64,000 nucleotides of DNA from Thermoanaerobaculia bacterium (GTDB lineage Bacteria; Acidobacteriota; Thermoanaerobaculia; Multivoradales; JAHEKO01), in the NCBI GenBank assembly GCA_049678185.1, contig JBAUDS010000444.1, positions 7,158 through 71,157 on the forward strand, in the 5' to 3' direction. Positions 5,604 to 62,344 of the stretch are shown piece by piece. The position numbers and the translations under genes were made by a program. The notes below the pieces were generated by a model. That model saw only the letters and a program-made list of their open reading frames with translations, did not search any database and had not been told where the DNA came from. How positions within the stretch are numbered: position 1 is the stretch's first letter; every line of letters starts with the position of its first letter.

Positions 5604-6098
5604 CTAAGGAAACTCGCCCATATCGGCTCTCATCGCGTCCAGCAGATCCCTCAGTTCGCGCAGTCGCTTCTTTCCCAGTTGCCCCAGGATCTGTTTTGGG
5701 AACTGCTCGACCGCTTTGTCCAGGGATTTGAGTGTCGCCAAGCCGTCCCTGGCGATAAAGATCCTCACCAACCGGCGGTCGCCGGTGTCTCGCTTTCTGG
5801 TGACCAGCTTGCGCTCTGCCAGCCGGTCGACCAACCTGGTGACGTCCGGATCGCGGTTGATCATCCGCTCGGCTACCTCGCCGCAGGTCAAACCCTCGGG
5901 GTGTGCTCCCCGCAGGATCCGCAGCAGGTTGTACTGCGTCGTGCTCAACCCGGTCCTGGACTTGAGGAAGCGCGCCCACGGCTCTCGCGCTCGTTGTGCG
6001 GTCAGGCGGAGGCCGAGATAGACCTCAGCCTCGAGCGAAGGGAAGGCCTTGGCTTGCTTGAGCTCCTTTTGCAGTTGGGAAGACATTATCTGTTGCAA
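5604..6098 (-). CDS. MarR family transcriptional regulator
   Basis: The winged-helix region LSTTQYNLLRIL...LTCGEVAERMINRDPDVTRLVDRLAERKLVTRKRDTGDRR is typical of MarR. Confidence 0.8.
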   Translation of the reverse strand: MQQIMSSQLQKELKQAKAFPSLEAEVYLGLRLTAQRAREPWARFLKSRTGLSTTQYNLLRILRGAHPEGLTCGEVAERMINRDPDVTRLVDRLAERKLVTRKRDTGDRRLVRIFIARDGLATLKSLDKAVEQFPKQILGQLGKKRLRELRDLLDAMRADMGEFP

Positions 6099-6205
6099 CG
6101 ATAACTGGTAGAACCGTAATTTGTCAAGTGGGGTCTTCGGATCGGTGTCGGCATCGTGTAGCCTTTGGGCGTGAGCGGAACGAATCGGGCGGACCTGGTG
6201 GAGCG

Positions 6206-6985
6206 ATGAGCAGAATCAGCCTCGTTCACTGGAGCCTGGAAGAGGGCAAGGAGCGGGCCTCACAGCTGCGACGGGCCGGCCATCGAGTCAAGATGGTCTC
6301 CCCCCAGGGAGGAGACAGTCTTCAGGATTTGCTGACAAAGCCGCCCGACTCTTTCGTCATCGATCTCGGCCGGTCGCCGTCACAGGGGCGTGATCTGGCC
6401 ATCTGGCTCCGCGGACGCAAGGCCACCCGCTCCGTGCCCATCGTCTTGGTCGGCGGCGATCCTCAGAAGGTCGCGGGCGTGCGGAAGGTGCTGCCGGATG
6501 CCGTCTTCTCGGAGTGGCGACGGATCCGCAGCGCCGTGCGGCAAGCCATCGAGAGCCCGCCGACCGCCCCGGTGCAACCGGGGGCGATGGCCGGCTATGC
6601 GGGGACTCCGCTGCCCAAGAAACTCGGTATCAAAGAGGGATCGGTCGTGGTGCTGCTTGGTGCGCCCGGCGACTTCGAAGAAACTCTGGGCACCCTACCG
6701 CCCGAAGTTCGGCCGCGGCGCCGAGCTCGCGGTGAAGCCGATCTGGTGCTGTTGTTCTGCAAACGCCTGGCGGAGCTCGAGCGCCGCTTTCCGGTAGCCG
6801 TTCGTACGATGGCGGAAGGGGGGAGCCTGTGGATCGCCTGGCCCAAGCAGGCTTCGGGGGTCGCCACCGATCTCACCCAGAACAAGGTGCGTGCCTACGG
6901 CCTCGACAACGGTCTCGTCGACTTCAAGATCTGCGCCATCGACGACACCTGGTCAGGGCTGCGCTTTGCCCGTCGTAAGAGCTGA
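6206..6985 (+). CDS. hypothetical protein with a receiver-like N-terminal domain and a DUF3052-like C-terminal domain
   Basis: The internal ATG was chosen because it follows GGTGGAG. The N-terminus (EE ... FVIDLG ... IVLVGG ... K) resembles a CheY-like fold. The C-terminal 150 aa resemble DUF3052, but this is recalled from memory and not verified. Confidence 0.45.
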   Translation: MSRISLVHWSLEEGKERASQLRRAGHRVKMVSPQGGDSLQDLLTKPPDSFVIDLGRSPSQGRDLAIWLRGRKATRSVPIVLVGGDPQKVAGVRKVLPDAVFSEWRRIRSAVRQAIESPPTAPVQPGAMAGYAGTPLPKKLGIKEGSVVVLLGAPGDFEETLGTLPPEVRPRRRARGEADLVLLFCKRLAELERRFPVAVRTMAEGGSLWIAWPKQASGVATDLTQNKVRAYGLDNGLVDFKICAIDDTWSGLRFARRKS

Positions 6986-7018
6986 AGTCGCGCAGAGTAC
7001 GGGGAGGAAGAAGATTCG

Positions 7019-7714
7019 ATGAAGGGAATGACGAGGATCTTGGCGGTGATGATGTTCATACCTGTTCTCGGCTGTCGACAAGAACCGGCCGAGCTGCCGT
7101 CCGCGGAGACGCTGCGTATCTATCTCGCCCGTCACGGGCAGACCGACTGGAACGCCGAGCGACGGCTCCAGGGGGGTACCGACACCGAGCTCAACGAGAC
7201 CGGTCGAGGACAGGCGGCCGAGCTGGCAGCGAGGCTGGATGGGATCGCACTTGACGCTGTCTACTCGAGTCAGCTTCGCCGGAGTCGCGATACCGCCCAG
7301 GTGGTCGCGGGCGAGAGTGGGGTGGTCAGCCTCGCCGAGCTCAACGAGCAGCAGCTGGGAGAGTTCGAGGGTGCCTACCTCGACGGCCGTGACCCCCAAG
7401 CCGTGGCCGAGTTCGAGCGCCGGAGCGCCGACCCGACCGATACGATGGGTGGCGGGGAGTCGATCGAACAGCACCTGGCACGTGTGGAGCAGGCGCTCGA
7501 GCTCATTCGCGGCCGGCATCCCAGCGGGCGGATATTGATCGTCGGTCATGGTGGCACCAACGCCCAGATCTTGCGAGCGCTGCTCGGCCTGAGCGCGCAG
7601 GAGGCTGGAGAGATAGGGCAGAGCAACTCGGAGCTCTACCTCATCGAGCTGTCCCCAGGTCGGGATCCCAGGCTGTGGAAGCACATTCCGTCGGAGAACC
7701 TCGATGAGCTCTAG
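7019..7714 (+). CDS. histidine phosphatase family protein (phosphoglycerate-mutase-like), lipoprotein
   Basis: The RHGQTDWN catalytic His motif is present, along with a lipobox (VLGCRQ) and a second His in the GHGGT region. Confidence 0.75.
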   Translation: MKGMTRILAVMMFIPVLGCRQEPAELPSAETLRIYLARHGQTDWNAERRLQGGTDTELNETGRGQAAELAARLDGIALDAVYSSQLRRSRDTAQVVAGESGVVSLAELNEQQLGEFEGAYLDGRDPQAVAEFERRSADPTDTMGGGESIEQHLARVEQALELIRGRHPSGRILIVGHGGTNAQILRALLGLSAQEAGEIGQSNSELYLIELSPGRDPRLWKHIPSENLDEL

Positions 7715-10021: not shown

Positions 10022-10099
10022 AGCGATAAACCGAGGGATGAGAAGTATACGCCCGTGCAAAACGGCCGGCCTCTGTGCCGATTCAATGCGTAAGGGTAT

Positions 10100-10136
10100 G
10101 AAGCGGCCGGCCTCCGTGCCGGCCGGGGTGGGTGGC
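10100..10136 (+). repeat. REP-like GC hairpin, copy 1 (GAAGCGGCCGGCCTCCGTGCCGGCCG plus a G-rich tail)
   Basis: The arms form an 8-bp perfect stem (CGGCCGGC / GCCGGCCG) around a 6-nt loop. The same element occurs at five loci in this window, and this copy lies 3' of the PilZ gene. Confidence 0.6.
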
Positions 10137-15125: not shown

Positions 15126-16208
15126 ATGAAAACCTCATCTTCGAAGTTCAAGATCTTCGCTCCCGTTCTGGCAGGAGTGCTTCTGGCCTCTGCCCTCGTC
15201 GCCGAGGAAGGGCCGCCGCCGGCGGCGGTGCAAGTGGGTTTTGCCCTCGAGCAGGAGATGTCTCCTCTGGTCTGGGTGCCGGGGACGGTGGTGAGTCGCA
15301 ACCAGGCGGTCATCGCTACCGAGATTGCCGGGCAGCTCACCTGGGTGGCCGAAGTAGGCGATGTGGTCAAAAAGGGAGATGTGGTCGCCAGGATCAACGA
15401 CCAGTCCCTACAGCTCCAGCTTCAGAACGACGATGCGACGATCAAGCGCCACGAGGCCAATCTGCAGTATCTCGAGCAGCAGGTAAAGCGCCTCGAGAGG
15501 CTGACCGAGCAACAGGTCGCTCCGGCCAGCGATCTCGAGGAGGTGGTGTCGCGGCGCGAGACCTTGGTGCAGGAGATCGTCCAGGCCAAGGTGGCTGTGG
15601 AGCAGACCCGCTACCAGCTCTCACGCACCCGGGTGACGGCCCCCTTTTCCGGCAGGGTCGTCGAGCGCCTGCAACAGCCGGGCGGCTACGCTTCTGTGGG
15701 CGGCCCAGTCGTCCGCCTGGTAGATACCGAGAACACCGAGGTGAGGGCGCAGGCGCCGCTCAGCGTCGAGAGCTATCTCCAGGAGGGAATGCGTCTGGCG
15801 GTCAAGGGACGCGACCAGGAGGCGAAGGGCACCCTGCGTGCGGCGATTCCTGTGGGCGACGAGCGATCGCGAATGTTCGAAGTGCGCGTTGCTCTCGCGG
15901 GCGAGCCCTGGATCATCGGCAGCGCGGTCCGTGTGGCTCTACCGAGTGCCAGTCCCCGACCGGTCATCGCCGTGCCCCGGGATGCCCTCATCCTGCGTAG
16001 CGACAGTATCTACCTGTTCAAGATAACCGCAGAGGGAACGGCCGAGAAAGTCGCCGTAGAGACCGGTATCGGGCACGCCTCGCTGATCGAGGTCAAGGGT
16101 AATGTCGGTGCCGGAGACCAGGTCGTAGTACGCGGCGGCGAGCGTCTACAACCAGGCCAGTCCGTAACCATAGCCGGCAACGGCGACGAAGCCCAACCGT
16201 CATCGTGA
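15126..16208 (+). CDS. efflux RND transporter periplasmic adaptor subunit (HlyD/MFP family)
   Basis: It has a signal or TM segment followed by a coiled-coil hairpin (QLQLQNDDATIKRHEANLQYLEQQVKRLERL) and lipoyl and beta-barrel motifs (RVTAPFSGRV). The internal ATG at 15126 was chosen. ATG 15111 is an alternative start. Confidence 0.8.
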   Translation: MKTSSSKFKIFAPVLAGVLLASALVAEEGPPPAAVQVGFALEQEMSPLVWVPGTVVSRNQAVIATEIAGQLTWVAEVGDVVKKGDVVARINDQSLQLQLQNDDATIKRHEANLQYLEQQVKRLERLTEQQVAPASDLEEVVSRRETLVQEIVQAKVAVEQTRYQLSRTRVTAPFSGRVVERLQQPGGYASVGGPVVRLVDTENTEVRAQAPLSVESYLQEGMRLAVKGRDQEAKGTLRAAIPVGDERSRMFEVRVALAGEPWIIGSAVRVALPSASPRPVIAVPRDALILRSDSIYLFKITAEGTAEKVAVETGIGHASLIEVKGNVGAGDQVVVRGGERLQPGQSVTIAGNGDEAQPSS

Positions 16209-16245
16209 AGCGGCCGGCCACCGTGCCGGCCGGGGAGGGTGGGGT
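16207..16245 (+). repeat. REP-like GC hairpin, copy 2
   Basis: The sequence GAAGCGGCCGGCCACCGTGCCGGCCGGGGAGGGTGGGG fills the gap between the convergent adaptor and bcp stop codons, and the adaptor TGA lies inside the repeat. Confidence 0.6.
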
Positions 16246-41534: not shown

Positions 41535-41554
41535 GGGGGGGAGGCTTCAGGGGA

Positions 41555-41580
41555 CGAAGCGGCCGGCCTCCGTGCCGGCC
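41555..41580 (+). repeat. REP-like GC hairpin, copy 3
   Basis: The copy GAAGCGGCCGGCCTCCGTGCCGGCCG lies between the two HEAT-repeat genes. Confidence 0.6.
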
Positions 41581-41610
41581 GACTCCGCGACGAAGAAAGG
41601 GAGAACCGAA

Positions 41611-42708: not shown

Positions 42709-42790
42709 TTACTCCACCTCCACCACCATCTCGATCTCGACCGCGATACTCATTGGCAGCGATGCCATACCCACCGCGGCGCAGGAGGCT
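42709..42790 (-). pseudogene. orphan 3'-terminal fragment of a ridA-like gene (diverged duplicate of 44767..44850)
   Basis: Over about 65 nt it is similar to the 3' end of the intact ridA gene. The first 38 nt are identical and the remainder about 80% identical. It encodes ...ASLPMSIAVEIEMVVEVE plus a stop, and the listed ORF 42709..43038 is non-RidA upstream of that. Confidence 0.6.
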
Positions 42791-42970
42791 TTCGCCAACG
42801 CCAGCAACGAGGCCGACTGAGACGTATCGGTGTTCATGGGCGGGGCCGGTCTTCCCACCTTCAGGTTGCCACGAAAGGAGAAGGCGAAGACCCGGAGGCG
42901 GCCAATCGAGATTGGCGAGACCGCGAAGAGGTGGGACCAGAGTGGCGAGCGATCATCGAGGCGGAGGAGT

Positions 42971-44500
42971 TCATCGCTCGGGCCGCGCACTTGCGTATGC
43001 CTCTTGGACTGCCTGCTCCATTTGGGCGATCTCGTCATCTGACAGAAAGTCGAAATGACTGCTGCGCTTCAGAGCGGAAATTCGCCCGTTGTTCTGAAGG
43101 CAGAACCGAATGAACAGGTCGATCTTCCGGTCGGGTATGTCCAGAATGTCTTGAATGGCCTTCTTGGTCTCCTCGTACATTGCCAGAAACGACAATTCCT
43201 CGACGAGTTCCGTCTCGATGGTGTGCTCAATGAAGCGGTACAGCGCCTCGGCCTGCGGCGTCATGTCGATGTAGGCGTACCATCGAGCCGTATCGTTCTG
43301 GACGGTCATGCGCCCGTCTTCGTCGAGCAAATATTCGACCAATGGCATGAGCGGGCGCGAGAACGCCTCCAGCGAGGCGTCGTACGCGGACGGATTTTTC
43401 AGCATCGAAGCCGAAACTGGAAACATGATGCCTTCAGGCGTGAAGCCCTGGCGCGCAAGAATGTTGTGGATCAAGAAGCGATGGATGCGCCCATTGCCAT
43501 CTTCGAAGGGATGAAGGAAGACGAACCCGTAGGCCAGCGTTGCCGCGTGTACAACGGGGGGAACGCCGCCTTTATCCATTCGCTCATGCGTGGCGATCAG
43601 GCCGCTCATGAGCGACTCTAGATCTTCTGGCTTCGGGCAAGCGAAATGGACCTTCTCCCGTTGCCATGCCACGCTTTCGCCGACATAGTTCTGGAACGTA
43701 CGATAGTCGGAATCGCGGAATCTCGGATCGACGATGCGATTCTGAAGATCGATCAAATGCGCCTTCTCACAGAAGTCCTCTTTCTCCGCAAGCTGAAGCA
43801 TTGCGATGAATCGTTCGGTTCGAGTCGAGCTCGGTTTGACATGCTCGATCTCGAAGGACGATTTCGTCTCTTTTGTGTACAGGTAGCTCAGGGCCCGCTT
43901 CAGCAGTTCCGGCGAAAAGGCCGACACGACCTGCTTGCAGCGTTCGGTGAGATCGGCCTCTTGGAAGCCGCGAAGGACGTCGGTGCGCCGTATGGTTGGA
44001 CAAAATCGGCTATCGCCTAGCAGATTGTCGTTGATCCTCTGGCGACGGATCTGGCGAGCCGGTGTGACCGTGTAGTATTGATCCGAATCCAGCAGGTCGA
44101 CGTAGTTGCCCTGCTTCACATCATCCAACGGGAGAGTCGAGCCCGTTAGAAACTCATACAGGAACCACAGCCGTCGGGCGTATTTCCCGGTTGGTTTGGA
44201 CTCAACGTAGGCCAGGATTTCTTCCTGCAGGACTACCTCAAACAGGCTGGCGAGGATTGCGAGATTCGTGCCGTCGTACTTGAGTGCGAATTCGAGATGC
44301 GCCCCGAGAGAGTCCCCCGGCCAGTACTTGAATGGATAAACCTCCTCGGTTACGCCGGAGGAGGTTTCGATTCGGTGGGAACCGCCGGTGGCCACGCAGG
44401 ACCGGTGCCAGTTCGGGATAACTTCCAGGCTATATCTGGCAATCAGCGCCTCATACCCTGCTGGCTTCTGTCCCGTGCCTTCCTGATCGTGTTCATCCAT
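42971..44500 (-). CDS. Fic family protein (509 aa, COG3177-type)
   Basis: It has the canonical Fic motif HPFEDGNGRIHR. The architecture is an N-terminal helical domain with a C-terminal winged helix. Confidence 0.9.
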   Translation of the reverse strand: MDEHDQEGTGQKPAGYEALIARYSLEVIPNWHRSCVATGGSHRIETSSGVTEEVYPFKYWPGDSLGAHLEFALKYDGTNLAILASLFEVVLQEEILAYVESKPTGKYARRLWFLYEFLTGSTLPLDDVKQGNYVDLLDSDQYYTVTPARQIRRQRINDNLLGDSRFCPTIRRTDVLRGFQEADLTERCKQVVSAFSPELLKRALSYLYTKETKSSFEIEHVKPSSTRTERFIAMLQLAEKEDFCEKAHLIDLQNRIVDPRFRDSDYRTFQNYVGESVAWQREKVHFACPKPEDLESLMSGLIATHERMDKGGVPPVVHAATLAYGFVFLHPFEDGNGRIHRFLIHNILARQGFTPEGIMFPVSASMLKNPSAYDASLEAFSRPLMPLVEYLLDEDGRMTVQNDTARWYAYIDMTPQAEALYRFIEHTIETELVEELSFLAMYEETKKAIQDILDIPDRKIDLFIRFCLQNNGRISALKRSSHFDFLSDDEIAQMEQAVQEAYASARPER

Positions 44501-44581
44501 GGTGTTTCCAGAAGAACGATTACGTCCACAGAATTATGATTATATTTTGGCAAAAGTCAAGAAAAATGATTACGAAAGGGG

Positions 44582-44607
44582 TTTTCTAGGACCACACTCC
44601 TAGAAAA
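44582..44607. promoter_or_regulatory. perfect 10-bp inverted repeat TTTTCTAGGA-N6-TCCTAGAAAA in the fic leader
   Basis: The palindrome lies about 85-110 nt upstream of the fic start, inside the AT-rich foreign segment. Three ATGAT(T/C)A direct repeats lie nearby. Confidence 0.4.
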
Positions 44608-44766
44608 GCCGCGATAGGACCGGCAATACGAGTACAGTTGGCCACTTTTCAAGAAATATGATCACAGCCTATCCAGCCACCTCCCAATGGGTAGTGATCA
44701 GGGAAAGGAAGTTCGGCGATACGAACTTCCTTTCATTAACTTCCTTGATGACTTCCTGGTCATGTC

Positions 44767-45369
44767 CTACTCCACCTCCACCACCATCTCGATCTCGACC
44801 GCGATGCCCATGGGCAGCGATACCATCCCGACGGCGGCGCGGGCGTGCTTGCCCTGGTCGCCGAAGATCGACACCAGTAGATCCGAGCAGCCGTTGATGA
44901 CCTTGGGCTGGTCGGTAAAGGCGGGATCCGAGTTCACCATGCCGTGTACCTTGACGATGCGCTTCACCCGGCTGAGCTCCCCGATCTCGGCCTTGAGCGA
45001 GGCCAGCAGCGCGATGGCGGTAAGACGCGCGGCCTCGTAACCCTCTTCGAGTGTCAGGTCCTGACCCAGCCTGCCAGTGACATAGGTGCCGTCGGCCTTC
45101 AATGGCCCATGACCAGCCAGAAAGACTAGATTGCGGGTCGTCACCGCCCGTACATAGTTGGCCACCGGTGGTGGTGGAGTGGGGAGCTCGATACCGAGCG
45201 CCGCCAAACGTTTCTCTGGCGTGTCGGCGGCACTTTTGTCCGACGCGGTGTCTTGGGCGTTCGCCATCGGTGCAACGACGAGCCCGGCCACCAGGGCCAG
45301 CGCCACCAACAAGACGCCGATCTTTCTATCGGACCGGCTCTCCTCCAAGTTATCCAGACTGCAGCTCAT
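44767..45369 (-). CDS. Sec-exported RidA/YjgF family protein
   Basis: A signal peptide (IGVLLVALALVAGLVVAPMANA) precedes the RidA fold, and the C-terminus ARAAVGMVSLPMGIAVEIEMVVEVE is characteristic. A strong AGGGAGGA RBS lies before the internal ATG. The 3' end of this gene is the insertion site of the fic islet. Confidence 0.8.
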   Translation of the reverse strand: MSCSLDNLEESRSDRKIGVLLVALALVAGLVVAPMANAQDTASDKSAADTPEKRLAALGIELPTPPPPVANYVRAVTTRNLVFLAGHGPLKADGTYVTGRLGQDLTLEEGYEAARLTAIALLASLKAEIGELSRVKRIVKVHGMVNSDPAFTDQPKVINGCSDLLVSIFGDQGKHARAAVGMVSLPMGIAVEIEMVVEVE

Positions 45370-46700: not shown

Positions 46701-46792
46701 GGAGTCTCCCTCCTCAGGGCTACGCAGAGTGGCGAGTGTCGAACTGAACGATGAGCTCAAAGTATACAGAGGGCTTGGCCAGCCCTCCTGAC

Positions 46793-46818
46793 GAAGCGGC
46801 CGGCCACCGTGCCGGCCG
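46793..46818 (+). repeat. REP-like GC hairpin, copy 4
   Basis: The copy GAAGCGGCCGGCCACCGTGCCGGCCG lies about 27 nt 3' of the PPK2 stop. Confidence 0.6.
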
Positions 46819-46844
46819 ATCGACTACTGATTCTCTTTCGCGGC

Positions 46845-51617: not shown

Positions 51618-52133
51618 ATGAGCAATCGAGCGCTGAGGGCGACAGCACTCGTCGTTGCCCTGATCATCGCCGCCTGGGTCTTCCTGGGGTGGTGGGGAAG
51701 CGACGAGCGGCGGATCAAACGACGGGTCAAGCACCTCCAGAAGCTGGTGACCAAGAACATCGGCGAGGGGGACCTGGGAGCGCTCAACCGCGCCCGCGAG
51801 ATCACCGAGATTTTTGCCGACCCCTTCGACTTCGAAGCCGAGCAGTTCGATTTCCGCAGCCGCGACCGCCAGAGCCTGGCGGTCGGTATCCACAGCTACC
51901 GCTCGCGCGCCGAGACCATAGGCATGCGGGTCCGTGACTGGCAGCTCGATGTCGACAAACCATCGCGGCGGGCGACGCTGAACGTGACCACCGACTTCGT
52001 CACCAGCTTCCGCGACATAACCGGCCGCGAGGCCTATCGCTGGCAGGTGAACTGGGTCGAGCAGGAGGATGAGTGGCGGATCGACTACGTGCGGCTGCTC
52101 GAGGTCATCGAAGAGCCGTCCTGGGGCTTTTGA
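51618..52133 (+). CDS. membrane-anchored protein of unknown function (target gene of the second islet)
   Basis: It has an N-terminal TM segment (ALVVALIIAAWVFLGWW). Its last 85 nt are duplicated in diverged form at 53881..53969. Confidence 0.5.
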   Translation: MSNRALRATALVVALIIAAWVFLGWWGSDERRIKRRVKHLQKLVTKNIGEGDLGALNRAREITEIFADPFDFEAEQFDFRSRDRQSLAVGIHSYRSRAETIGMRVRDWQLDVDKPSRRATLNVTTDFVTSFRDITGREAYRWQVNWVEQEDEWRIDYVRLLEVIEEPSWGF

Positions 52134-52154
52134 CTGCTCGGCTCGACCTCGAGC

Positions 52155-52808
52155 CTAAGGCGAGGCCGGGAGAAACTCGCAGCCGACAGAGCTGAGAAAG
52201 CACCGCTTCTTGCTGCCGCCGAGTAGCTTCATTACTGCCGGTTTGAAGTTGGAGACCGGCTTCCCGGCAGAATTCTTGTTACCCACCGGGTCCGCCGCGA
52301 GTTTCTGGATAACCCTCCGGTCTTTGAACCGGACTCGGACGGTTACCCCAAGCCCATGCCGAATCTCGATCTCTTGCGGCAGCGGGAGGCTCTCTACGAC
52401 ATAGACGTCCCACCTTGGCGAGTGCCATTTGAGGTCGTTCTCCGCGAAGATCCTTCGATGGCCGTCAAATACGTGGAGTTGGGTGATAAACGCCCCACCG
52501 TCGTCCATCGGGTACTTGTAGAAGTTGTCGGACTCTTGGACCCACTCCGGGTTGGGGATCGGAGGCTCGTAATCGGTGGTGAACTGCAGCATCACTTTGC
52601 GAAGTCGCGGCCACTGTTGCGAGCTTTCTACGGCCAGGCTGGTCATCGGTAGGTGAAAGTGCACCCAGGGTTCGTCATGGTTGTCTTCATCCTGGGCCTT
52701 GCCCTCGAGATAGAGACCCCAACCGGCAGGAGTCCACTCACCCCACTCGTCTTCGACCTCCTGGAAGTGCCCGCAGTTGCCGTGGACCCAAGTAATCTGC
52801 GTCGACAT
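52155..52808 (-). CDS. hypothetical cytoplasmic protein (islet cargo)
   Basis: The 217-aa ORF lies in the lower-GC segment, and no motif was recognised. Confidence 0.45.
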   Translation of the reverse strand: MSTQITWVHGNCGHFQEVEDEWGEWTPAGWGLYLEGKAQDEDNHDEPWVHFHLPMTSLAVESSQQWPRLRKVMLQFTTDYEPPIPNPEWVQESDNFYKYPMDDGGAFITQLHVFDGHRRIFAENDLKWHSPRWDVYVVESLPLPQEIEIRHGLGVTVRVRFKDRRVIQKLAADPVGNKNSAGKPVSNFKPAVMKLLGGSKKRCFLSSVGCEFLPASP

Positions 52809-53113
52809 TGACCTGGTCCTCCTAGAAAAAAGTTGTCGTCATCCAGGCAAACCGGTCAAGGCTGCGCTGGTATCCGGATCCGCAAGAGGAATCTCCTCTG
52901 GATGAGACTTACTCGTTCTGTGGAACTTCTCGGAGCTTCGTGGCTGGACCACCCAGTTCGATCAACACGATATCCGAGTCTACGCCCAAACGGTCGAATA
53001 CGATCCGCTGGCCACCCGATTTTGGAGTGAGATCGGACGGCCAGTCGAAAGGGATATAGTGCTTGGAACCACTATCACCAGTTTCTGGTCAAATAGGGAC
53101 CTAGGAGGACGAT

Positions 53114-53791
53114 TTGCGCCAGGTTGCTGCTCGGATAACACCTTTTGTAGTCCTACTGGTTGTTGCTCTTCCCGGGATGGCCGACTCTCGTCTCACCATC
53201 GAGGAAGGGAGCGGTCTGGTCGGCGACGGCGCTGAGCTGCCGGAGGGCATGCGCGAGAGCCTGGCCAATCAAGAGCCAACAACGGTTACCTATTGGTTCA
53301 CCGGGGACCGCGCGGCTCGAGTCGATAAGTCAGGCAGCATCATCAGCCGGCTGGACCGGAGTGAGGCCTACTTCGTCAACACCGACGCCAAGACCTACAC
53401 CGTCATCGAGATGGGCGGCCCAGAAGATGGGCCTGCGCCAACGGCTGTCTCGAAACTCGTCCAATCGGGCGAGACCAGAAAGATCGCCTCCTGGAACACG
53501 GTTCGCTACGACATGACGATCGAGATGGGGGACGAGCCCGCCGAGATTGTCCTGTGGGTCAGCGATGAGGTCGATGTCGACCTATCCTCCTACCGGGCCT
53601 TTGTCGAAGCCATGGCCGACTCGCAGGGGATGGAATGGATGAAGAGCTTTCTCGAGATCGACGGCTACCCGGTACGGCAGGAATTCCGCATGGGTCCCAT
53701 CCTGTCGTGGCAGCAACTCGTCTCGGTAAGTCAGGAGCCGGCACCTGCCGGCACCTACGAGGCACCGGCAGGCTTCGCGAAAGTCGATTAG
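53114..53791 (+). CDS. hypothetical secreted protein (islet cargo)
   Basis: A TTG start 5 nt after AGGAGGA is followed by a signal peptide (ITPFVVLLVVALPGMADS), giving a 225-aa product. Confidence 0.45.
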   Translation: MRQVAARITPFVVLLVVALPGMADSRLTIEEGSGLVGDGAELPEGMRESLANQEPTTVTYWFTGDRAARVDKSGSIISRLDRSEAYFVNTDAKTYTVIEMGGPEDGPAPTAVSKLVQSGETRKIASWNTVRYDMTIEMGDEPAEIVLWVSDEVDVDLSSYRAFVEAMADSQGMEWMKSFLEIDGYPVRQEFRMGPILSWQQLVSVSQEPAPAGTYEAPAGFAKVD

Positions 53792-53880
53792 CTGCGCGAA
53801 TGGCCAGTAGCCTCCAAGTCGGGTGTTTCACGGCCCGGTGATGACGCTCCAGGCGACGCGGCCGAAGCTGGGCTGTGAAG

Positions 53881-53969
53881 CCAACCGCTGGCAGGTAGAC
53901 CGGGTAGAGCAGGAGGAGGAGTGGTGGTTCGACTATGCTCGGCTGCTCGAGGTCATCGAAGACCTCTAG
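53881..53969 (+). pseudogene. orphan diverged 3'-end copy of gene 51618..52133 (alternative C-terminus plus stop)
   Basis: It is about 80% identical over 85 nt, with a 22-nt perfect core GGCTGCTCGAGGTCATCGAAGA. It encodes NRWQVDRVEQEEEWWFDYARLLEVIEDL plus a stop, compared with YRWQVNWVEQEDEWRIDYVRLLEVIEEPSWGF in the intact gene. Confidence 0.55.
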
Positions 53970-56377
53970 CGCGTGGGATTCGGAGTCGCGGGAATCCCGA
54001 TGCGGCGAGTCAGCTCGGCGAAACGGGGATCGTCGCGGACGAGATCCCAGCTGGGCTCCTGGCGCATCAGCATGAGCTGTGGGATACGCTCGACGTAGGC
54101 TCGCTCCAGCCACTCGTAGGCGGCATCGGCCTCTCCGGCCCCCGCAAAGTAGAGGGCGACCTCGCGCGCATTGGACCGGCCCGACTCGACCCGAGTGGCC
54201 AACACCTCGGCGACTCGCTTCGCTCCTTCCCGCGGACCCGCCGCGGCATATCCCTCTTCGAGAGCGGTGAGCAGCTCGGGGTTGTCTTGCCAGCGTCGGC
54301 GGTACTCGGCCAACGACGCCTCGAAGTCACCTTTGAGCCAGAGGGCCCGAGCGAGAAAAATCCGCGCCGCAGGAAACCTTGGATCAATCTCCAGGAGTGT
54401 GTGGGCGCCGTCGATAGCCTCGTCATAGCGCCGCGCCAAGACGAGGTGGGCTACCACAGGTGAGTTGACGAGGGGGGAGAGGGGATCGGCCCGTGCCGCC
54501 CGCCGCAAGTACTCGACACCCTCGTCGGCTCTTCCCATCACCGTCAGGTAGTCGGCGTAGCCGTGGCAGGCGTACGGATCGTAGGGATTCAATGCGAGCG
54601 CCCGTTCGAAATCGCGGGCCGCACCGCTCCAGTCCCAATCGAAGTAGAGCCTTATCCAGCCGGACAGCGCATGACCGGTGAGGTTGTCGGGATCCAGCTC
54701 GAGAGCTTTTCGAGTGTTCTCTCGGGTCAGCGCCTCGTGCTGCCGGCGGTCGCCGATGCCAAAGCTTGCGATCAACAGGTGGCAGCCGGCTAACCGGGCG
54801 TAGGCTTCGGCAAAACCGGGCTGGATCTCGATGGCTCGATTGAAGAAGTCTACGGCCCGGAGGTAGCCGTCGGCAGTGAAGCGATTGAACGAGTGCTGAC
54901 CCTTGAGAAAAGCCTCGTGTGCCGCGGGATCGATCGTTCCCGTCGCGGCAAAGCGTCGCTCCTGCTCGGGTGTCAGGGTAGCCTGGATCTCGCCGGCGAT
55001 GGAGCGGGCTACCTCACTCAGCAGGATCAACACATTCTCAATCTGTCGATCGTAGCTATCGGCCCACAGATGCTCATCGGTGCGTCCATCGATCAATTGG
55101 GCGGTGACGCGAACCTCGCCACCCGAGCGCAAAACAGAGCCTTCGATCAGCGCGTCGACATTCAACTGCTGGGCGATCTCCGGCAGGCTCGCATCGCTGT
55201 CCTTGAACCGCATGGCCGAGGTGCGGGAGATGACGCGCAGGGATGTAATCTTCGCCAGGTCGGTGATCAGAGCCTCATGCAGTCCCTCGACAAAGTAGTC
55301 CTGGTCCGGATCGTTCATTAGATTCTCGAAGGGCAGGACCGCCAATGACTCCACACTCGGATGCCCGGCAGCCCCGGGTGGTGGGCTTCGACGTCCGGAT
55401 AACCAGTAGACACCAGCCAGAATGACGACCAGCGCCGCGGCGATCATCAAAGGAAGGCGCCAAGGTGCAAGAGGCGATTGCTGTGCCTCAGGCTCGACGG
55501 GCGGTCGAGCATCGAGGATGGCCCGGGTTTCGAGCTCCTTGGCGAGGTCCTGGAGCTCGTTGCGGACGTCCTTGGCCGACTCGTAGCGGCGCTCGGGGTC
55601 TTTTTCCAAGCACCGTCGAACGATGCGGCCGAGATGGTGAGGCAGCTCCTGCCGCAGGGCATCCACGGAGCTTGGAGGATCCCGCAAGATCGCGGAGATC
55701 AGATCGGCCGAGCTCTTGCCGCCAAAGGGGCGACCTCCCGTCGCGATCTCGTAGAGGACCACTCCCAGCGCGTACACATCCGTCCGTCGATCGGTCTCCT
55801 GGCCCTGCACTTGCTCGGGCGCCATGTAGGGGACCGTGCCGACAACCCGGCCCTCCTGCGTGATGCCCTCGGTCGCCAGTTGGGTTCCCGTCTTGTCTGC
55901 CGCGTCTGGCTTGAGCTTGGCGAGACCGAAGTCGAGCACCTTGACCTGACCCCTCGGCGTGACCATGACATTGCCGGGCTTCAGGTCGCGGTGCACGATT
56001 CCCTTATCGTGCGCCGCCGCCACGGCATCGGCCAGCGGAATCGCCACCTCGAAAATCCTTTCCAGAGTTATTCCTCCAGGTGGGATGAGGTCCGCCAGAG
56101 TCCGTCCTTCGACCAGCTGCATCGTGAGAAAGCGAATCCCGTCGTCCTCTTCGACCGAGTAGATGTGCACGATGTTCGGATGGTCCAAAGCAGCCAGTGT
56201 CTCTGCCTCCAACTGAAAGCGCTGCATCCTCTCCTGGCTGCCAACCATCCCCGGCGGCAGCACTTTCAGGGCAACCTGACGCTTGAGCTCGAGATCGTCG
56301 GCGCGGTAGACCTCGCCCATACCGCCTTCGCCCAGCTTGGCGAGCACGCGGTAGTGGGAAATGGTTCTGCCGATCAT
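53966..56377 (-). CDS. Hanks-type Ser/Thr protein kinase with TolB-N-like module and C-terminal TPR repeats (paralog of 2510..4657)
   Basis: Kinase motifs are GEGGMGEVY (Gly-rich glycine loop), VALK, HRDLKPGNVM, DFGLAK and PYMAPEQ. A TM segment follows (PLMIAAALVVILAGVYWL), then LPFENLMNDPDQDYFVEGLHEALI and TPR repeats. Confidence 0.85.
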   Translation of the reverse strand: MIGRTISHYRVLAKLGEGGMGEVYRADDLELKRQVALKVLPPGMVGSQERMQRFQLEAETLAALDHPNIVHIYSVEEDDGIRFLTMQLVEGRTLADLIPPGGITLERIFEVAIPLADAVAAAHDKGIVHRDLKPGNVMVTPRGQVKVLDFGLAKLKPDAADKTGTQLATEGITQEGRVVGTVPYMAPEQVQGQETDRRTDVYALGVVLYEIATGGRPFGGKSSADLISAILRDPPSSVDALRQELPHHLGRIVRRCLEKDPERRYESAKDVRNELQDLAKELETRAILDARPPVEPEAQQSPLAPWRLPLMIAAALVVILAGVYWLSGRRSPPPGAAGHPSVESLAVLPFENLMNDPDQDYFVEGLHEALITDLAKITSLRVISRTSAMRFKDSDASLPEIAQQLNVDALIEGSVLRSGGEVRVTAQLIDGRTDEHLWADSYDRQIENVLILLSEVARSIAGEIQATLTPEQERRFAATGTIDPAAHEAFLKGQHSFNRFTADGYLRAVDFFNRAIEIQPGFAEAYARLAGCHLLIASFGIGDRRQHEALTRENTRKALELDPDNLTGHALSGWIRLYFDWDWSGAARDFERALALNPYDPYACHGYADYLTVMGRADEGVEYLRRAARADPLSPLVNSPVVAHLVLARRYDEAIDGAHTLLEIDPRFPAARIFLARALWLKGDFEASLAEYRRRWQDNPELLTALEEGYAAAGPREGAKRVAEVLATRVESGRSNAREVALYFAGAGEADAAYEWLERAYVERIPQLMLMRQEPSWDLVRDDPRFAELTRRIGIPATPNPTR

Positions 56378-56445: not shown

Positions 56446-57732
56446 TCAGAACGAGAAGATCGCCGACACTGAGAGGGTGTCGCGAAGATCGGAGAAATCG
56501 GCTCCGAGGTCGATCTGGAACCGCTCGAAGGCCGCTCCTATGCCGAAGGCGTAGTGGATCTCGTCGGAGCCTGGGGACAGGAACGCCCGAAACAGGTCGT
56601 CACCTTCGGTGGCCCGGATGCGATGGTCCGGGTCGAGCCAGAGGCCAAGCCGAAGAGCGATGACTGGGTGGCTGCGAAGAAAAGCGTACTCACCGCCCAG
56701 GTGGAGCTCGTCGCCGTCGGGGATCGTCTCGTTTGGATCTGGCTCGGTGATCACCGAGTAGAGGACGTGGTCCCACTCGAAGCTCACCGTCAGGTGGCCG
56801 CCCGGTGAGGTATAGGCACCGCCCAGGCCGAAGACCCACGGGAAGTCCCAGTCGCCGGTGAAGTTCCACTGCCACAGGTTCTCGGGCGTGCTCGCCGGGC
56901 CCGGCACGCCTATCCAGCGGACGGGGACTGAGAATCCCGAGCGCAGGGAGCCGCCCAGCCTCCAGCGCTCCGTCGCTCTCCAGAGCAGCCCCGCGTTGAG
57001 GCCCACGGTCGAGTCGTGCGCCCGGGTCGTGCTCCATCCCGGTGAGCGCTCCGGAAGATAGGAGTTGGTTGAGAAAAAGGCCTCGAGTGAGTCGTCGTCG
57101 GGCAGATAGGTCGTGGCCCCGATGTCGAGGTCGACTTGGAGATAGGTCAAGCCGAGACCGAGGCTCAGCGAGTCGGTGATGCGACGAGCGGCGGCGAAGC
57201 CCCAGCCGACCACCTCGAGATCGGTAAACCCCTGCTGGTCGAGCCGGCGATCGGTGTCGAGATAGGTCGAGCCCTCGGCGAAGAGCCCGTCGGTGGCGTA
57301 TGACGATGCAAACCGGGCCAGTTGGTGGCGATAGAACGCAAACGACCAGCGCTCCCGCGGATGGACATAGGAGAGATACGAGAGCCCGTTGAAGTCGGCC
57401 GTGGACTCTTCCCAGCGCAGGTCCGGCGTGGTGTCGATGCCGAGACCCGTGGGGGCTCCACTGGCGCGGCCTCCGGCGACAAAGGGAGTGGAATACCTCC
57501 AGGACCGCCCCTCGACCGAGATCTCCGGGCGGGTGAGCTGGACCAGGCCCGCCGGGTTGGCGTAGGCGGCGGTGGCGTCGTCGGCCAGGGCCACGAAGGC
57601 GCCCCCGACGCCAAGGCTCCTGGCGCCCGGGTTCGAGAAGCTGAACTCGAGGGTAAGGAGTCCCTGGGCAAAGGCGCTCGAGGCCAGCAGGAAAGTGGCC
57701 GGTAGGACCAGGAGGCGGAATCGAGCACTCAT
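56446..57732 (-). CDS. outer membrane transport protein, OmpP1/FadL/TodX family
   Basis: A signal peptide is followed by the FadL N-terminal block GVGGAFVALADDATAAYANPAGL, and the C-terminus ends in an aromatic residue (SAIFSF). Confidence 0.7.
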   Translation of the reverse strand: MSARFRLLVLPATFLLASSAFAQGLLTLEFSFSNPGARSLGVGGAFVALADDATAAYANPAGLVQLTRPEISVEGRSWRYSTPFVAGGRASGAPTGLGIDTTPDLRWEESTADFNGLSYLSYVHPRERWSFAFYRHQLARFASSYATDGLFAEGSTYLDTDRRLDQQGFTDLEVVGWGFAAARRITDSLSLGLGLTYLQVDLDIGATTYLPDDDSLEAFFSTNSYLPERSPGWSTTRAHDSTVGLNAGLLWRATERWRLGGSLRSGFSVPVRWIGVPGPASTPENLWQWNFTGDWDFPWVFGLGGAYTSPGGHLTVSFEWDHVLYSVITEPDPNETIPDGDELHLGGEYAFLRSHPVIALRLGLWLDPDHRIRATEGDDLFRAFLSPGSDEIHYAFGIGAAFERFQIDLGADFSDLRDTLSVSAIFSF

Positions 57733-57941: not shown

Positions 57942-58526
57942 TCAGGTCGGGCGACCAGTCGATTTGGAGGCCGCACCGATCTGCAGAGCGCGTAGCAGCT
58001 CCAGGGCCTGCTGGAATTGCTCGCGGGCGCGCGAGATGTACTTGTGGACCTCGTCGATGTAGCCGTCGGTGGAGGCCGACCAGCTGCGGTTGAGATAGCG
58101 CTCGCCGGTGGCGAAGTGGCTCATGACATCGGCGTAGGCCTGGAGGCCGTGGGCGTGGCCGATCGACTCGCGGGCCTGGACAAAGATGTCGAGGTCCTCC
58201 ATGAACATGTCGTCGATCTTGTGTCGTACCTCGTAGACGTCGAGAGACTCCTTTGCCGTATCGAGCCGGGCCGCTTTCTCGACGATGCGGTCGAGGCTCC
58301 CCTCCACCTTGCCGAGGTTGGCCTGCACCTCATCGGTGGCGGTCCGTTTGCTGCGGAAGTCCAATTGCACCAGCACCACGCCGATGAGTCCCACCACCAG
58401 ACAGGGTCCGACCATGTGCCAGGGAACGGTCTCGGTGTCCAACACCGAGAAGTAGGCGCCGGCGAGAAAGCCGCCCCAGATCAACAGAAGTCCAAGAGTT
58501 CTCATTCTTCGATCTCCTTTGGCCAT
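57942..58526 (-). CDS. membrane protein of unknown function (2 TM) downstream of the OPT transporter
   Basis: Two N-terminal TM helices precede a helical cytoplasmic domain. It lies 3 nt from the OPT stop. Confidence 0.45.
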   Translation of the reverse strand: MAKGDRRMRTLGLLLIWGGFLAGAYFSVLDTETVPWHMVGPCLVVGLIGVVLVQLDFRSKRTATDEVQANLGKVEGSLDRIVEKAARLDTAKESLDVYEVRHKIDDMFMEDLDIFVQARESIGHAHGLQAYADVMSHFATGERYLNRSWSASTDGYIDEVHKYISRAREQFQQALELLRALQIGAASKSTGRPT

Positions 58527-62286: not shown

Positions 62287-62309
62287 CCCGAAGGCGCAGT
62301 CCGACTTAC

Positions 62310-62335
62310 GAAGCGGCCGGCCTCCGTGCCGGCCG
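62310..62335 (+). repeat. REP-like GC hairpin, copy 5
   Basis: The copy GAAGCGGCCGGCCTCCGTGCCGGCCG lies between the convergent GH9 and aminopeptidase stops. Confidence 0.6.
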
Positions 62336-62344
62336 AATGCGACG

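Follow-up and report, generated by a model that had tools for sequence, protein, structure and literature searches.

Orphaned 3′ ends of genes are known from T6SS and Rhs arrays, where homology-facilitated illegitimate recombination is the proposed cause (Kirchberger et al., 2017, PMC5361080); displacement of 3′ ends in Rhs, CDI and T6SS arrays was also described by Jackson et al. (2009), as cited in PMC5361080. The locus described here, in which a diverged copy of a gene end lies downstream of accessory DNA, resembles these arrays (PMC5361080) in having a conserved upstream anchor, an old 3′ end orphaned downstream, no recombinase and a mosaic content that arises through successive events. 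The two differ in what is displaced: the ends in Rhs, CDI and T6SS arrays are different toxin domains with useful immunity genes, whereas the end found here is a homologous, useless piece of 92 nt, and no toxin/immunity logic is evident.

Integrative elements that use the 3′ ends of protein genes offer another comparison. The e14 element leaves a 163-bp pseudo-icd on integration in icd (PMC6379469), and ICEs, IMEs and CIMEs integrate in fda, rpmG and rpsI (PMC7563491). With e14 and phage 21 in icd (PMC6379469), and with the ICEs and IMEs of the ICESt3 family (PMC7563491), the locus shares the succession of gene, accessory DNA and diverged 3′-end duplicate, with the gene intact. However, those elements encode an integrase and their duplicate lies 3′ of the crossover, regenerating the gene. 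The present islet lacks an integrase, its duplicate carries the identical block at the 3′ end, and its insert is pieced together from chromosomal DNA. CIMEs measure 1.2–13 kb and have kept their att sites whilst losing their recombination genes, and the islet is like them in being small, with cargo only, direct repeats at a gene 3′ end and no recombinase (PMC7563491). CIMEs are recognised, however, by att sites common to an active ICE/IME family of the same species, and no such family, integrase or att sequence is known for the islet.

Flexible genomic islets and integration hot spots sit between conserved core genes in prokaryotic pangenomes. The present locus is of this kind, with fixed core flanks (g171 and the gene at 57942), lineage-specific accessory genes, lower GC3 and replacement of alleles through flanking homology. 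Hot spots are not usually noted for gene-end relics, whereas here relics of g171 and of a PD40 propeller gene record the junctions. In the window, by which we mean the whole 64-kb stretch of DNA analysed, from the genome of an uncultured member of the Thermoanaerobaculia, the duplicated gene end is best read as a scar, now fixed in the species, of displacement-type recombination between divergent alleles of a hypervariable locus. It is most likely the mark of an old recombination junction, in DNA whose rearrangement differs from one related species to the next, and not a new type of mobile element.

The live gene and its duplicated end

Table 1. Features of the islet and its surroundings, in window coordinates
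Feature	Position	Strand	Description
g171	51618..52133	+	Intact, 171 aa; N-terminal membrane anchor and SnoaL_4/NTF2-like domain; conserved left border of the variable region
Repeat copy A	52023..52114	+	Within live g171, codons 136–166
Spacer between convergent g171 and c217	52134..52154		Hairpin GGCTCG-ACCT-CGAGCC; common to L002, 90.5% identity
c217	52155..52808	-	217 aa, cytoplasmic; genus-restricted; a real gene under purifying selection
Spacer upstream of c217	52809..52904		87.5% identical to L002
DNA absent from L057	52858..56432		3.6 kb, kinase gene included
PD40 beta-propeller gene relic	52905..53034	-	Last ~40 codons and stop codon (~130 nt)
c225	53114..53791	+	225 aa, secreted, DUF4412
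Repeat copy B	53871..53962	+	Pseudogene relic of g171 3′ end; annotated in MAGs as a 48-aa ORF (53823–53969)
Ser/Thr kinase gene	53966..56377	-	Intact, convergent on the relic; TolB_N-like and TPR regions (Pfam)
FadL/Toluene_X-type outer-membrane protein gene	56446..57732	-	L057 homology resumes here

All 37 homologues of g171 that were found carry a C-terminal tail of the LLEVIEEPxWGF type, some of them with PF13577, and among orthologues the C-terminus is conserved, not variable. Comparison of g171 with its congeners gives dN/dS values of 0.11–0.13. The order hyp-PALP-DUF885-g171 is kept across about 30 loci, and DUF885-g171 is 87–92% identical at the nucleotide level in congeners.

An earlier note on this DNA had proposed that the end of g171 recurs, in diverged form, downstream of inserted genes, provided that the two copies proved significantly similar on alignment. 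The duplicate is real: the repeat spans 92 nt without gaps at 83.7% identity (15 mismatches), with a BLAST E-value of 3.6e-23 within the 64-kb window, and the same search returned chance matches of only 16–18 nt (E ~0.65). The downstream copy lies about 1.75 kb beyond live g171. All 15 mismatches fall within the first 70 nt of the repeat, and the last 22 nt, GGCTGCTCGAGGTCATCGAAGA, are perfect. Upstream of 53871 there is no significant extension of the similarity to g171. The duplicate had also been described as ending exactly where the kinase gene stops, which is true of its reading frame: this terminates in LLEVIEDL and a TAG at 53967–53969, which overlaps the kinase stop (CTA, 53966–53968) in the palindrome CTAG. 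The similarity itself, however, ends at 53962, 4 nt short of the stop codon. An assembly artefact can be dismissed, since 13 loci of the same species, taken from NCBI MAGs and Logan contigs, are 100% identical over the 2.5 kb around the islet. All genomes of the species are identical at the islet, and for this reason the event can be neither dated nor polarised within the species.

The downstream copy is a decayed, non-functional pseudogene fragment of the g171 3′ end, in keeping with its earlier description as a remnant. The lack of function follows from its substitutions (12 codons changed relative to g171, 8 of them non-synonymously, with the invariant residues W146 and Y140 altered to R and N, respectively), from the absence of the C-terminal tail native to the family, and from a GC-to-AT bias in the changes. 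At the mismatched positions the relic has all four bases (T6, A4, C3, G2). It groups with the clade of the window species and its congener L002, at 84–85% identity and with about 10 private changes. A duplicated g171 end was found at no other locus compared.

A mosaic interval at a hypervariable locus

The DNA between the copies has a GC content of 0.592, below both the 0.64 of the core genes that flank it and the 0.629 of the window as a whole, and its lower GC and GC3 bear out the view that it is accessory. The earlier note had seen in it two genes only, forming a single cargo unit and coding for proteins without a recognisable domain. This picture requires revision. A third gene fragment, the PD40 relic, separates c217 from c225, c217 occurs without c225 in L002 and beside the outer-membrane gene in a further congener (L057), and one of the two proteins does have a domain. 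Given the PD40 relic between c217 and c225, the interval is mosaic, with two or more component pieces.

The match of the PD40 relic to L002 reaches 53013 by blastn (89%) and 53034 by tblastn (80% identity over 41 aa). In L002 the gene is full-length and encodes a protein with PD40 repeats, and the relic probably derives from the C-terminal region of a Ser/Thr kinase. A stretch of 45 nt at 52863–52907 is perfectly conserved with L002 and contains the hairpin AGAGGA-ATC-TCCTCT. For c217, a search of 5.8 billion proteins returned homologues in 3 clusters only, which evolve with dN/dS of 0.14–0.36 and occupy four different neighbourhoods among relatives; its AF2 model is of low quality (pLDDT 54) and hints at no more than a jelly-roll beta-sandwich. 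The protein c225, on the other hand, matches Pfam DUF4412 (E 6.8e-7, better than the Pfam cut-off), and its AF2 model (pLDDT 91; Foldseek match to LolA, E 1.6e-6) predicts a LolA/LolB/RseB-like fold. It is matched by 335 representative clusters, the closest at 53–56% identity, and the closest homologue has an unrelated gene context.

The synteny of DUF885-g171 with the hypothetical gene at 57942 is kept in about 30 loci, with a gap of 1.1 to 5.8 kb that holds different genes. Five congeners (81–90% nucleotide identity) have four contents directly after the g171 stop codon, namely c217 and the PD40 gene in L002, DUF2780 in L001 and L070, Peptidase_M14 in L004, and the arrangement of the window; they diverge directly after this stop codon, not at the 22-nt core. 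The region from g171 to 57942 is therefore a hypervariable islet, with different genes among the sampled congeners. In L002, c217 occupies the same position between homologous flanks (88–90% at the nucleotide level), c225 is lacking, and the available downstream sequence, 1.9 kb long, shows no relic. The two c217 proteins share 60% identity with a dS of 0.78, against ~0.3 for the flanks, which by this measure of divergence shows that c217 underwent allele replacement. The earlier expectation that the cargo would be missing from this locus across the lineage thus holds for c225, found at the g171 locus in this species only among the relatives sampled, and fails for c217, which is resident in L002.

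A further junction is found in L070, where the g171 3′ end has an in-frame deletion of 105 nt at a 5-nt GTCGA microhomology (51955/52056), and where identity to L001 changes from 89.4% to 96.4% at the deletion junction. This is an independent recombination junction in the same gene end, and because of it the breakpoints lie at several positions (51955/52056, 52023, 52114 and 52133) rather than at one site. An empty site in which g171 abuts the kinase gene was not seen among the relatives' loci examined, which are on short contigs, and no donor with both the propeller relic and c225 was found.

To the right, the kinase gene had been taken as a fixed neighbour on which the duplicate abuts, but it belongs to the DNA that L057, the best "empty" relative, does not have. 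The homology blocks in L057 correspond to window positions 58039–56433 and 52857–52155 and lie 6 nt apart, and the outer-membrane gene is 68 nt from c217. The kinase has a complete C-terminus by comparison with 13 homologues, genes homologous to it at 71% and 60% identity have different neighbourhoods, and its GC3 is 0.755 against 0.83–0.86 for core genes.

Origin of the relic

The earlier observation that no recombinase is present is upheld: no integrase or recombinase was matched by Pfam in the islet or the ~8 kb to each side of it, and the only supported ORFs are c217 and c225. Searches in and near the islet gave no transposase, tRNA or Rfam RNA, and there are no terminal inverted repeats at its boundaries. 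Direct repeats with an identical core, in the manner of attL and attR, do flank the islet (92 nt with the 22-nt block), a feature that is not family-specific. A site-specific integrative element in the strict sense does not fit, as there is no integrase inside, the insert is not a coherent unit and, among the short contigs compared, no other genome shares the element or its att core. A transposon, insertion sequence or MITE was rejected for want of terminal inverted repeats and a transposase, the repeat being moreover diverged and 92 nt long. An integron cassette likewise did not fit in the absence of an integrase and of a structured imperfect palindrome at the boundaries, and a diversity-generating retroelement because there is no RT domain and the mismatches are not adenine-specific.

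A second locus of the same outline, also reported previously, is confirmed in the window. Its repeat (42710–42785 and 44768–44843) is 76 nt long at 89% identity, and the two islets are 7 kb apart, within 10 kb. This sister islet contains a low-GC Fic gene with homologues in viral contigs and a match to a candidate defence family, and its relic differs from the parent gene mostly at synonymous sites. In both relics a perfect block occupies the stop-proximal end and all mismatches lie on the other side: there is none in the 22 nt nearest the stop of the g171 relic (P = 0.011) and none in the last 38 nt of the sister relic (P = 0.0026). In both, a hairpin lies where the convergent neighbour gene stops (z = -2.6; -2.5 to -2.9), and the perfect block supplies one of its arms; the hairpin at the kinase stop uses relic bases 53948–53954. 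The hairpin offers a partial alternative explanation of the polarity, as it accounts for only 7–10 nt of each block. On inspection, the sequences of the two cores have no convincing motif in common.

We tentatively favour the view that a different allele of the g171 3′ end is the source of the 92-nt copy, a dead fragment left when recombination with DNA of some related lineage of Thermoanaerobaculia replaced what lay downstream of g171. The order of events, donor and junction type that we infer would be as follows. Incoming linear DNA with a complete g171 end, c217, the tail of the PD40-kinase gene and probably c225 would have been anchored through homology in DUF885/g171, and its far end would have been joined illegitimately inside the resident g171, by homology-facilitated illegitimate recombination. 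The last ~90 nt of the resident gene would thereby have been preserved next to the convergent kinase gene, to decay later, leaving an islet that should not be self-mobile and a relic ORF that should lack an independent function. The locus is variable and a relative has recombination junctions in the g171 end; here too, a homologous anchor is present on one side (DUF885-g171), an orphaned gene-end fragment (the relic) lies downstream of new DNA, and junctions without extended homology occur at variable positions (the upstream edge at 53871; L070). Displacement by replacement is thus suggested, still tentatively, by the hot-spot locus, the mosaic interval, the scattered breakpoints, the replacement of the c217 allele, the lack of mobility genes and the published precedent. 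Against it stand the polar mismatches, the missing tail, an event that cannot be dated, and the failure to find a donor or an ancestor with g171 next to the kinase gene. Displacement leads one to expect mismatches spread evenly along the orphan, which is not the case in either islet, and the polarity counts against it because one-sided illegitimate recombination does not predict polar mismatches, whereas a crossover within an identity block does. Furthermore, displacement must assume an earlier truncation or deletion, since the relic passes directly into the kinase stop without the canonical tail.

The polarity is what would be expected of a Campbell-type integration, in which a circle carrying a diverged g171-end fragment, c217, the propeller relic and c225 recombined by a single crossover in the longest identical block, 22 nt here and 38 nt in the sister islet, to leave two hybrid copies flanking the insert with no need for a dedicated recombinase. 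The stop-proximal position of the perfect block in both islets and the accessory DNA between direct repeats fit this scheme, as do the mostly synonymous differences of the sister relic, a pattern to be expected if its allele came from another lineage and not if it had decayed in place. We nevertheless consider it rather unlikely. RecA-dependent exchange usually requires 22 nt of identity at the least, if not more; the circle would have to arise from chromosomal fragments (c217 and the propeller gene being chromosomal neighbours in L002); and divergence among the congeners begins at the stop codon rather than the core. The ~10 private changes, if made after integration, also predict about 3 in the core, where there are none. 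Equally unlikely, or slightly more so, is a decayed or trans-mobilised CIME-like element, for which the repeats would be attL and attR, a tyrosine or serine integrase encoded elsewhere would target the g171 3′ end and the recombination genes would have been lost. The layout of gene, accessory DNA and displaced gene end is that of integration into protein-gene 3′ ends, and the presence in 10 kb of two islets that both have a perfect core, one of them also the Fic gene of viral and defence affinities, would suit such an element. However, the lack of an integrase extends ~8 kb to either side and the polarity is opposite to that of known cases: with the duplicated sequence on the 5′ side of the identical block, regeneration of the gene does not depend on it. 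The mosaic of chromosomal pieces with another gene relic among them, the residence of c217 in congeners, the scattered breakpoints of relatives, the unlike cores and the absence of the duplicated end from any second genome also tell against it.

A local tandem duplication taking in the g171 3′ end, and later reduced to 92 nt by deletions and insertions, would explain why the copies are close together in direct orientation and why the relic groups with the g171 of its own clade. It is decidedly improbable, as the flanks of the relic are unlike those of the live copy on both sides, at least 3 extra events are required and the mainly synonymous differences of the sister relic point to a foreign allele. 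Finally, the relic might itself be functional, as a 42/48-aa small protein, an RNA, a silent cassette for variation of the g171 C-terminus or one half of a DGR template/variable pair. Its frame is open and annotated in MAGs, and the kinase-stop hairpin uses its bases. This reading is largely refuted and very improbable: the ORF is confined to this species, with no homologous copy in congeners, and has substitutions at invariant residues; there is no reverse transcriptase or adenine-specific pattern of mismatches; and the g171 C-terminus is conserved among orthologues.

It is a quite doubtful but more general proposition that Thermoanaerobaculia host small recombinase-less cassettes that mimic the 3′ ends of housekeeping genes and cross over in a 20–40-nt identity block, by host recombination or an unlinked integrase. 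In such cassettes, if they exist, the target gene would stay intact and its old end would be pushed against the convergent neighbour. We retain the idea because two islets lie 7 kb apart with the same mismatch polarity, and one of them carries a candidate defence gene.

The repeated gene end

The earlier note had described a direct repeat that starts in the 3′ end of g171, a 171-aa gene, and recurs at the stop of a convergent Ser/Thr kinase gene. We recovered it as an ungapped 92-nt alignment at 83.7% identity between copy A (codons 136–166 of g171) and copy B, the downstream relic. The similarity is clearly significant (BLAST E 3.6e-23 within the window), the next-best match being 16–18 nt long with E 0.65. 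Comparison of the whole 64 kb with itself returned only this repeat, that of a sister islet (76 nt, 89% identity), a kinase paralogue pair and two short hairpin repeats. CCTCTAG directly follows copy B, whose frame stops in the CTAG shared with the kinase stop. The source is a metagenome-assembled genome (MAG) of an uncultured Thermoanaerobaculia (Acidobacteriota), the kinase record being titled "MAG: protein kinase [Thermoanaerobaculia bacterium]", and identical DNA is deposited as JBATYX010000026.1 and in sister assemblies. An assembly artefact is excluded, as 13 loci of the same species, taken from NCBI MAGs and Logan contigs, have the identical structure. Within the species the region is essentially clonal. 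The differences are limited to 12 mismatches in the first 80 nt of a contig from one MAG (L041/L050; window-equivalent 51643–51722, inside g171) that is otherwise near-identical over 10 kb; they probably reflect either an effect of assembly at the contig end or a short tract of recombination.

The g171 protein has an N-terminal membrane helix and belongs to a small family, some members of which carry a SnoaL_4/NTF2-like domain. A tail of the type ...LLEVIEEPxWGF ends all 24 homologues (24/24), and the upstream copy is thus the native, functional gene end; dN/dS against congeners is 0.11–0.13. Copy B is without this tail. Relative to copy A, 12 codons are changed, 8 of them non-synonymously, with the changes distributed 6/1/8 over the codon positions and biased towards A/T, and two family-invariant residues are altered (W146 to R, Y140 to N). 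It groups with the g171 of this clade (84–85% identity to the window and to the congener contig L002, 65–75% to distant relatives) and has about 10 private changes. Tail loss, residue changes and clade grouping with private changes together mark copy B as a decaying pseudogene fragment. An apparent upstream extension in tblastn (start at 53814, PSR...) was rejected, nucleotide similarity upstream of 53871 being no better than in shuffles. The ORF over the relic, 48 aa when started at GTG and 42 aa at ATG, occurs in this species only among the loci compared, which answers the earlier note's question about conservation of the 42-aa remnant. Short ‘hypothetical’ ORFs in MAGs can thus be gene-end relics.

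A mosaic interval at a variable locus

The two inserted genes, c217 (217 aa) and c225 (225 aa), do not form the single unit that had been supposed: the interval is a mosaic, with c217 present without c225 in L002 and the 3′ remnant of a PD40 propeller gene between them. Conservation of the cargo at this site in relatives, which the earlier note held would refute an insertion, is found for c217 (same place in L002) and not for c225, which was absent from the g171 locus in all relatives' loci compared. c217 is limited to this genus (3 homologue clusters in 5.8 billion proteins) and its dN/dS of 0.14–0.36 identifies it as a real gene. In L002 it lies at the window's position after a full-length PD40 beta-propeller gene, the 21-nt hairpin spacer after g171 and the upstream spacer both being kept and the flanks 88–90% identical. 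In L057, a contig that ends before g171, c217 has a FadL-type outer-membrane gene 68 nt upstream, with DUF2780 and a PD40 kinase on its other side; its neighbours in L058 differ again. The behaviour of c217 is that of a single-gene module, homology among the four contexts comprising the ORF with about 47–65 nt upstream and at most about 20 nt downstream. The L002 allele has 60% protein identity and dS 0.78 inside flanks that are both about 89% identical in DNA (neighbour genes, dS about 0.3), a pattern of sequence divergence that indicates allele replacement. The 45 nt between the PD40 relic stop and c217 match L002 perfectly (locus overall about 84%); they include a hairpin, AGAGGA-ATC-TCCTCT, and may act on c217 as a terminator or regulatory element.

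With the PD40 remnant, the islet contains a second relic of a gene end. The 225-aa protein, said to have no recognisable domain, matched DUF4412, and the structure prediction suggested for it gave a confident model (pLDDT 91) with a LolA/LolB/RseB-like fold (Foldseek E 1.6e-6). It has 335 related representative clusters, the nearest, at 53–56% identity, in unrelated context. A 13-nt inverted repeat (CCTGCCGGCACCT / AGGCACCGGCAGG) lies in its last codons, encoding APAGTYEAPAG. The DNA that is extra relative to L057 includes the kinase gene, and GC3 is 0.74–0.76 in c217, c225 and the kinase vs 0.83–0.86 in DUF885, g171 and the outer-membrane gene.

Positions of the features discussed (window numbering unless stated)
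Feature	Position	Strand	Remark
g171	51618–52133	+	171 aa
Copy A	52023–52114		within g171
c217	52155–52808	-	217 aa
Extra DNA vs L057	52858–56432
Segment perfect vs L002	52863–52907		45 nt
PD40 relic	52905–53034	-	last ~130 nt of propeller gene; 80% aa identity to L002 protein
c225	53114–53791	+	signal peptide, DUF4412
Inverted repeat in c225	53744–53772
Copy B (relic)	53871–53962
Kinase gene	53966–56377	-	convergent
Kinase paralogue pair	2531–3339; 55548–56356		opposite orientation
194-aa gene	57942–58526		right of variable region
Sister islet	42710–44843
Sister repeat copies	42710–42785; 44768–44843		relic; live
Fic-domain gene	42971–44500	-	509 aa
RidA/YjgF-family gene	44767–45267	-
REP-like repeat	10097–10126, 16206–16242, 41553–41582, 46790–46819, 62307–62336
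REP-like repeat, L001	65–103		contig numbering

The gene order hyp-PALP-DUF885-g171 and the 194-aa gene are kept across about 30 metagenome and MAG loci, with a gap between g171 and the 194-aa gene of 1.1 to 5.8 kb. In distant relatives the gap holds a Glu/Leu/Phe/Val dehydrogenase, with or without a DUF3179 gene. Among congener contigs (81–90% nucleotide identity) the content is again different: g171 is followed by c217, the PD40 relic, c225, the g171 relic and the kinase in the window, by c217 and the full-length propeller gene in L002, by DUF2780 in L001 and L070, and by a Peptidase_M14 gene in L004. The breakpoints are scattered. Among the g171-bearing contigs, homology is lost as soon as the g171 stop codon is passed rather than at the perfect 22-nt core of the repeat. 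In L070 (1560–1700; JGI 3300041086, Ga0452216_503011), g171 has an in-frame 105-nt deletion (window-equivalent 51956–52055) at a GTCGA microhomology, and precisely at this point identity to L001 rises from 89.4% (1617 nt) to 96.4% (745 nt). This is an independent recombination junction inside the same gene end. Recombination has thus left footprints of three kinds at this locus, namely swapped alleles, deletions at junctions and relics.

A scan of genome contigs with a single protein as query found nothing, and alignment-based scans found only relatives at 40–61% identity and one at 91%. No empty site was seen on the kinase side, the nearest kinase homologues (71% and 60%) lying in unrelated contexts, each followed by a co-oriented gene (RRM_1 in the 60% case). 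More than 5,800 database proteins match this kinase at E < 1e-100. A second kinase paralogue lies in the window (66% nucleotide identity over 819 nt); paralogues of this kind could act as rearrangement substrates.

The sister islet

Here a RidA/YjgF-family gene has its terminal 76 nt, stop included, repeated close to a convergent HEAT-repeat gene (19 nt from the latter's stop), the differences between relic and live copy being mostly synonymous. The copies enclose a 266-nt region with a GC content of 44% and the Fic-domain gene, a full-length match to the PADLOC candidate defence family PDC-S24 (E 2.7e-188). The Fic islet is present in all genomes with the exact RidA protein, and every genome of the species has it. 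Of the loci retrieved from relatives, none extends to the RidA, Fic or HEAT gene. In IMG/VR, Fic homologues (64–65% identity) lie at about 6000–7490 in three contigs, related to one another and of viral or mobile-element origin (L067–L069); these genes are low in GC (0.48 vs 0.58 for the contig), about 600 nt of AT-rich non-coding DNA precedes each, and homology to the window covers the Fic coding region only.

Origin of the relic

As the earlier note had reported, no recombinase is evident: we found no integrase or transposase in or around the g171 islet, and no reverse transcriptase, tRNA, Rfam RNA, terminal inverted repeats or intrinsic terminators. Tested features of an integrative element (integrase, coherent unit, shared att, empty site) were absent from the contigs sampled. 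Readings rejected were a diversity-generating retroelement (no reverse transcriptase; mismatches not A-specific), a transposon, MITE or integron (no transposase, terminal inverted repeats or attC-like structure) and a tRNA, tmRNA or known RNA as target (none found). Most economically, the relic would result from recombination of the displacement type between diverged alleles, a reading to which we would give a little less than an even chance. We infer the donor, the sequence of events and the type of junction as follows: DNA arriving from a congener would have had its homologous anchor in DUF885/g171, and its far end would have been joined illegitimately within the resident g171, whose last ~90 nt would have been left beside the kinase. 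Such a process has been put forward to explain the orphaned 3′ ends of T6SS effector-immunity and Rhs arrays (PMC5361080). The g171 feature acts as C-terminal displacement does at flexible genomic islets; its similarity to an att-flanked cis-mobilizable element (CIME) or to a duplicate of the pseudo-icd type is one of outline only.

One observation does not fit displacement. All 15 mismatches of the g171 repeat lie in its 5′ 70 nt and none in its 3′ 22 nt (P = 0.011); in the sister relic 8 fall in the 5′ half (38 nt) and none in the 3′ half, likewise 38 nt and including the stop codon (P = 0.0026). The perfect block of each relic is the end adjoining the convergent gene. Such polarity is what a crossover inside the identity block predicts, whether by Campbell-type integration through host recombination or through an unlinked integrase, for which CIME-like remnants and e14 in icd provide the parallel; we consider each of the two a minor possibility. 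Against the integrase count the position of the duplicated part 5′ to the core, opposite to known gene-regenerating att sites, the chromosomal pieces that make up the insert and the start of congener divergence at the stop codon. Constraint on the perfect block could account for the polarity in part, since in both relics this block supplies one arm of a hairpin at the convergent gene's stop (GAGGTC-ATCGAA-GACCTC at the kinase stop, z = -2.6; GTGGGGGTGG-TTACT-CCACCTCCAC after the HEAT-repeat gene, z = -2.5 to -2.9), although the arms cover only 7–10 nt of each block. That recombinase-less cassettes form a family targeting the 3′ ends of genes by way of a short stretch of identity seems very unlikely. 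The only motif shared by the two cores, TCGAGNTC, was set aside, being accounted for by common Glu-Val/Ile coding.

The g171 islet is a new example, from a little-studied lineage, of a known kind of genome scar. It offers a worked case, in an uncultured lineage of acidobacteria, of gene-content turnover at a fixed chromosomal hot spot without visible mobile-element machinery, where junctions remain legible as gene-end relics. As it stands it is one more example and establishes no new principle; the perfect-core polarity, if general, would point to a recombination mechanism that picks identity blocks at gene ends. Copies of a REP-like intergenic hairpin repeat, GAAGCGGCCGGCC(T/A)CCGTGCCGGCCGA, were absent from the islet boundaries; at least five occur elsewhere in the window, and the repeat is also found in the congener contig L001.
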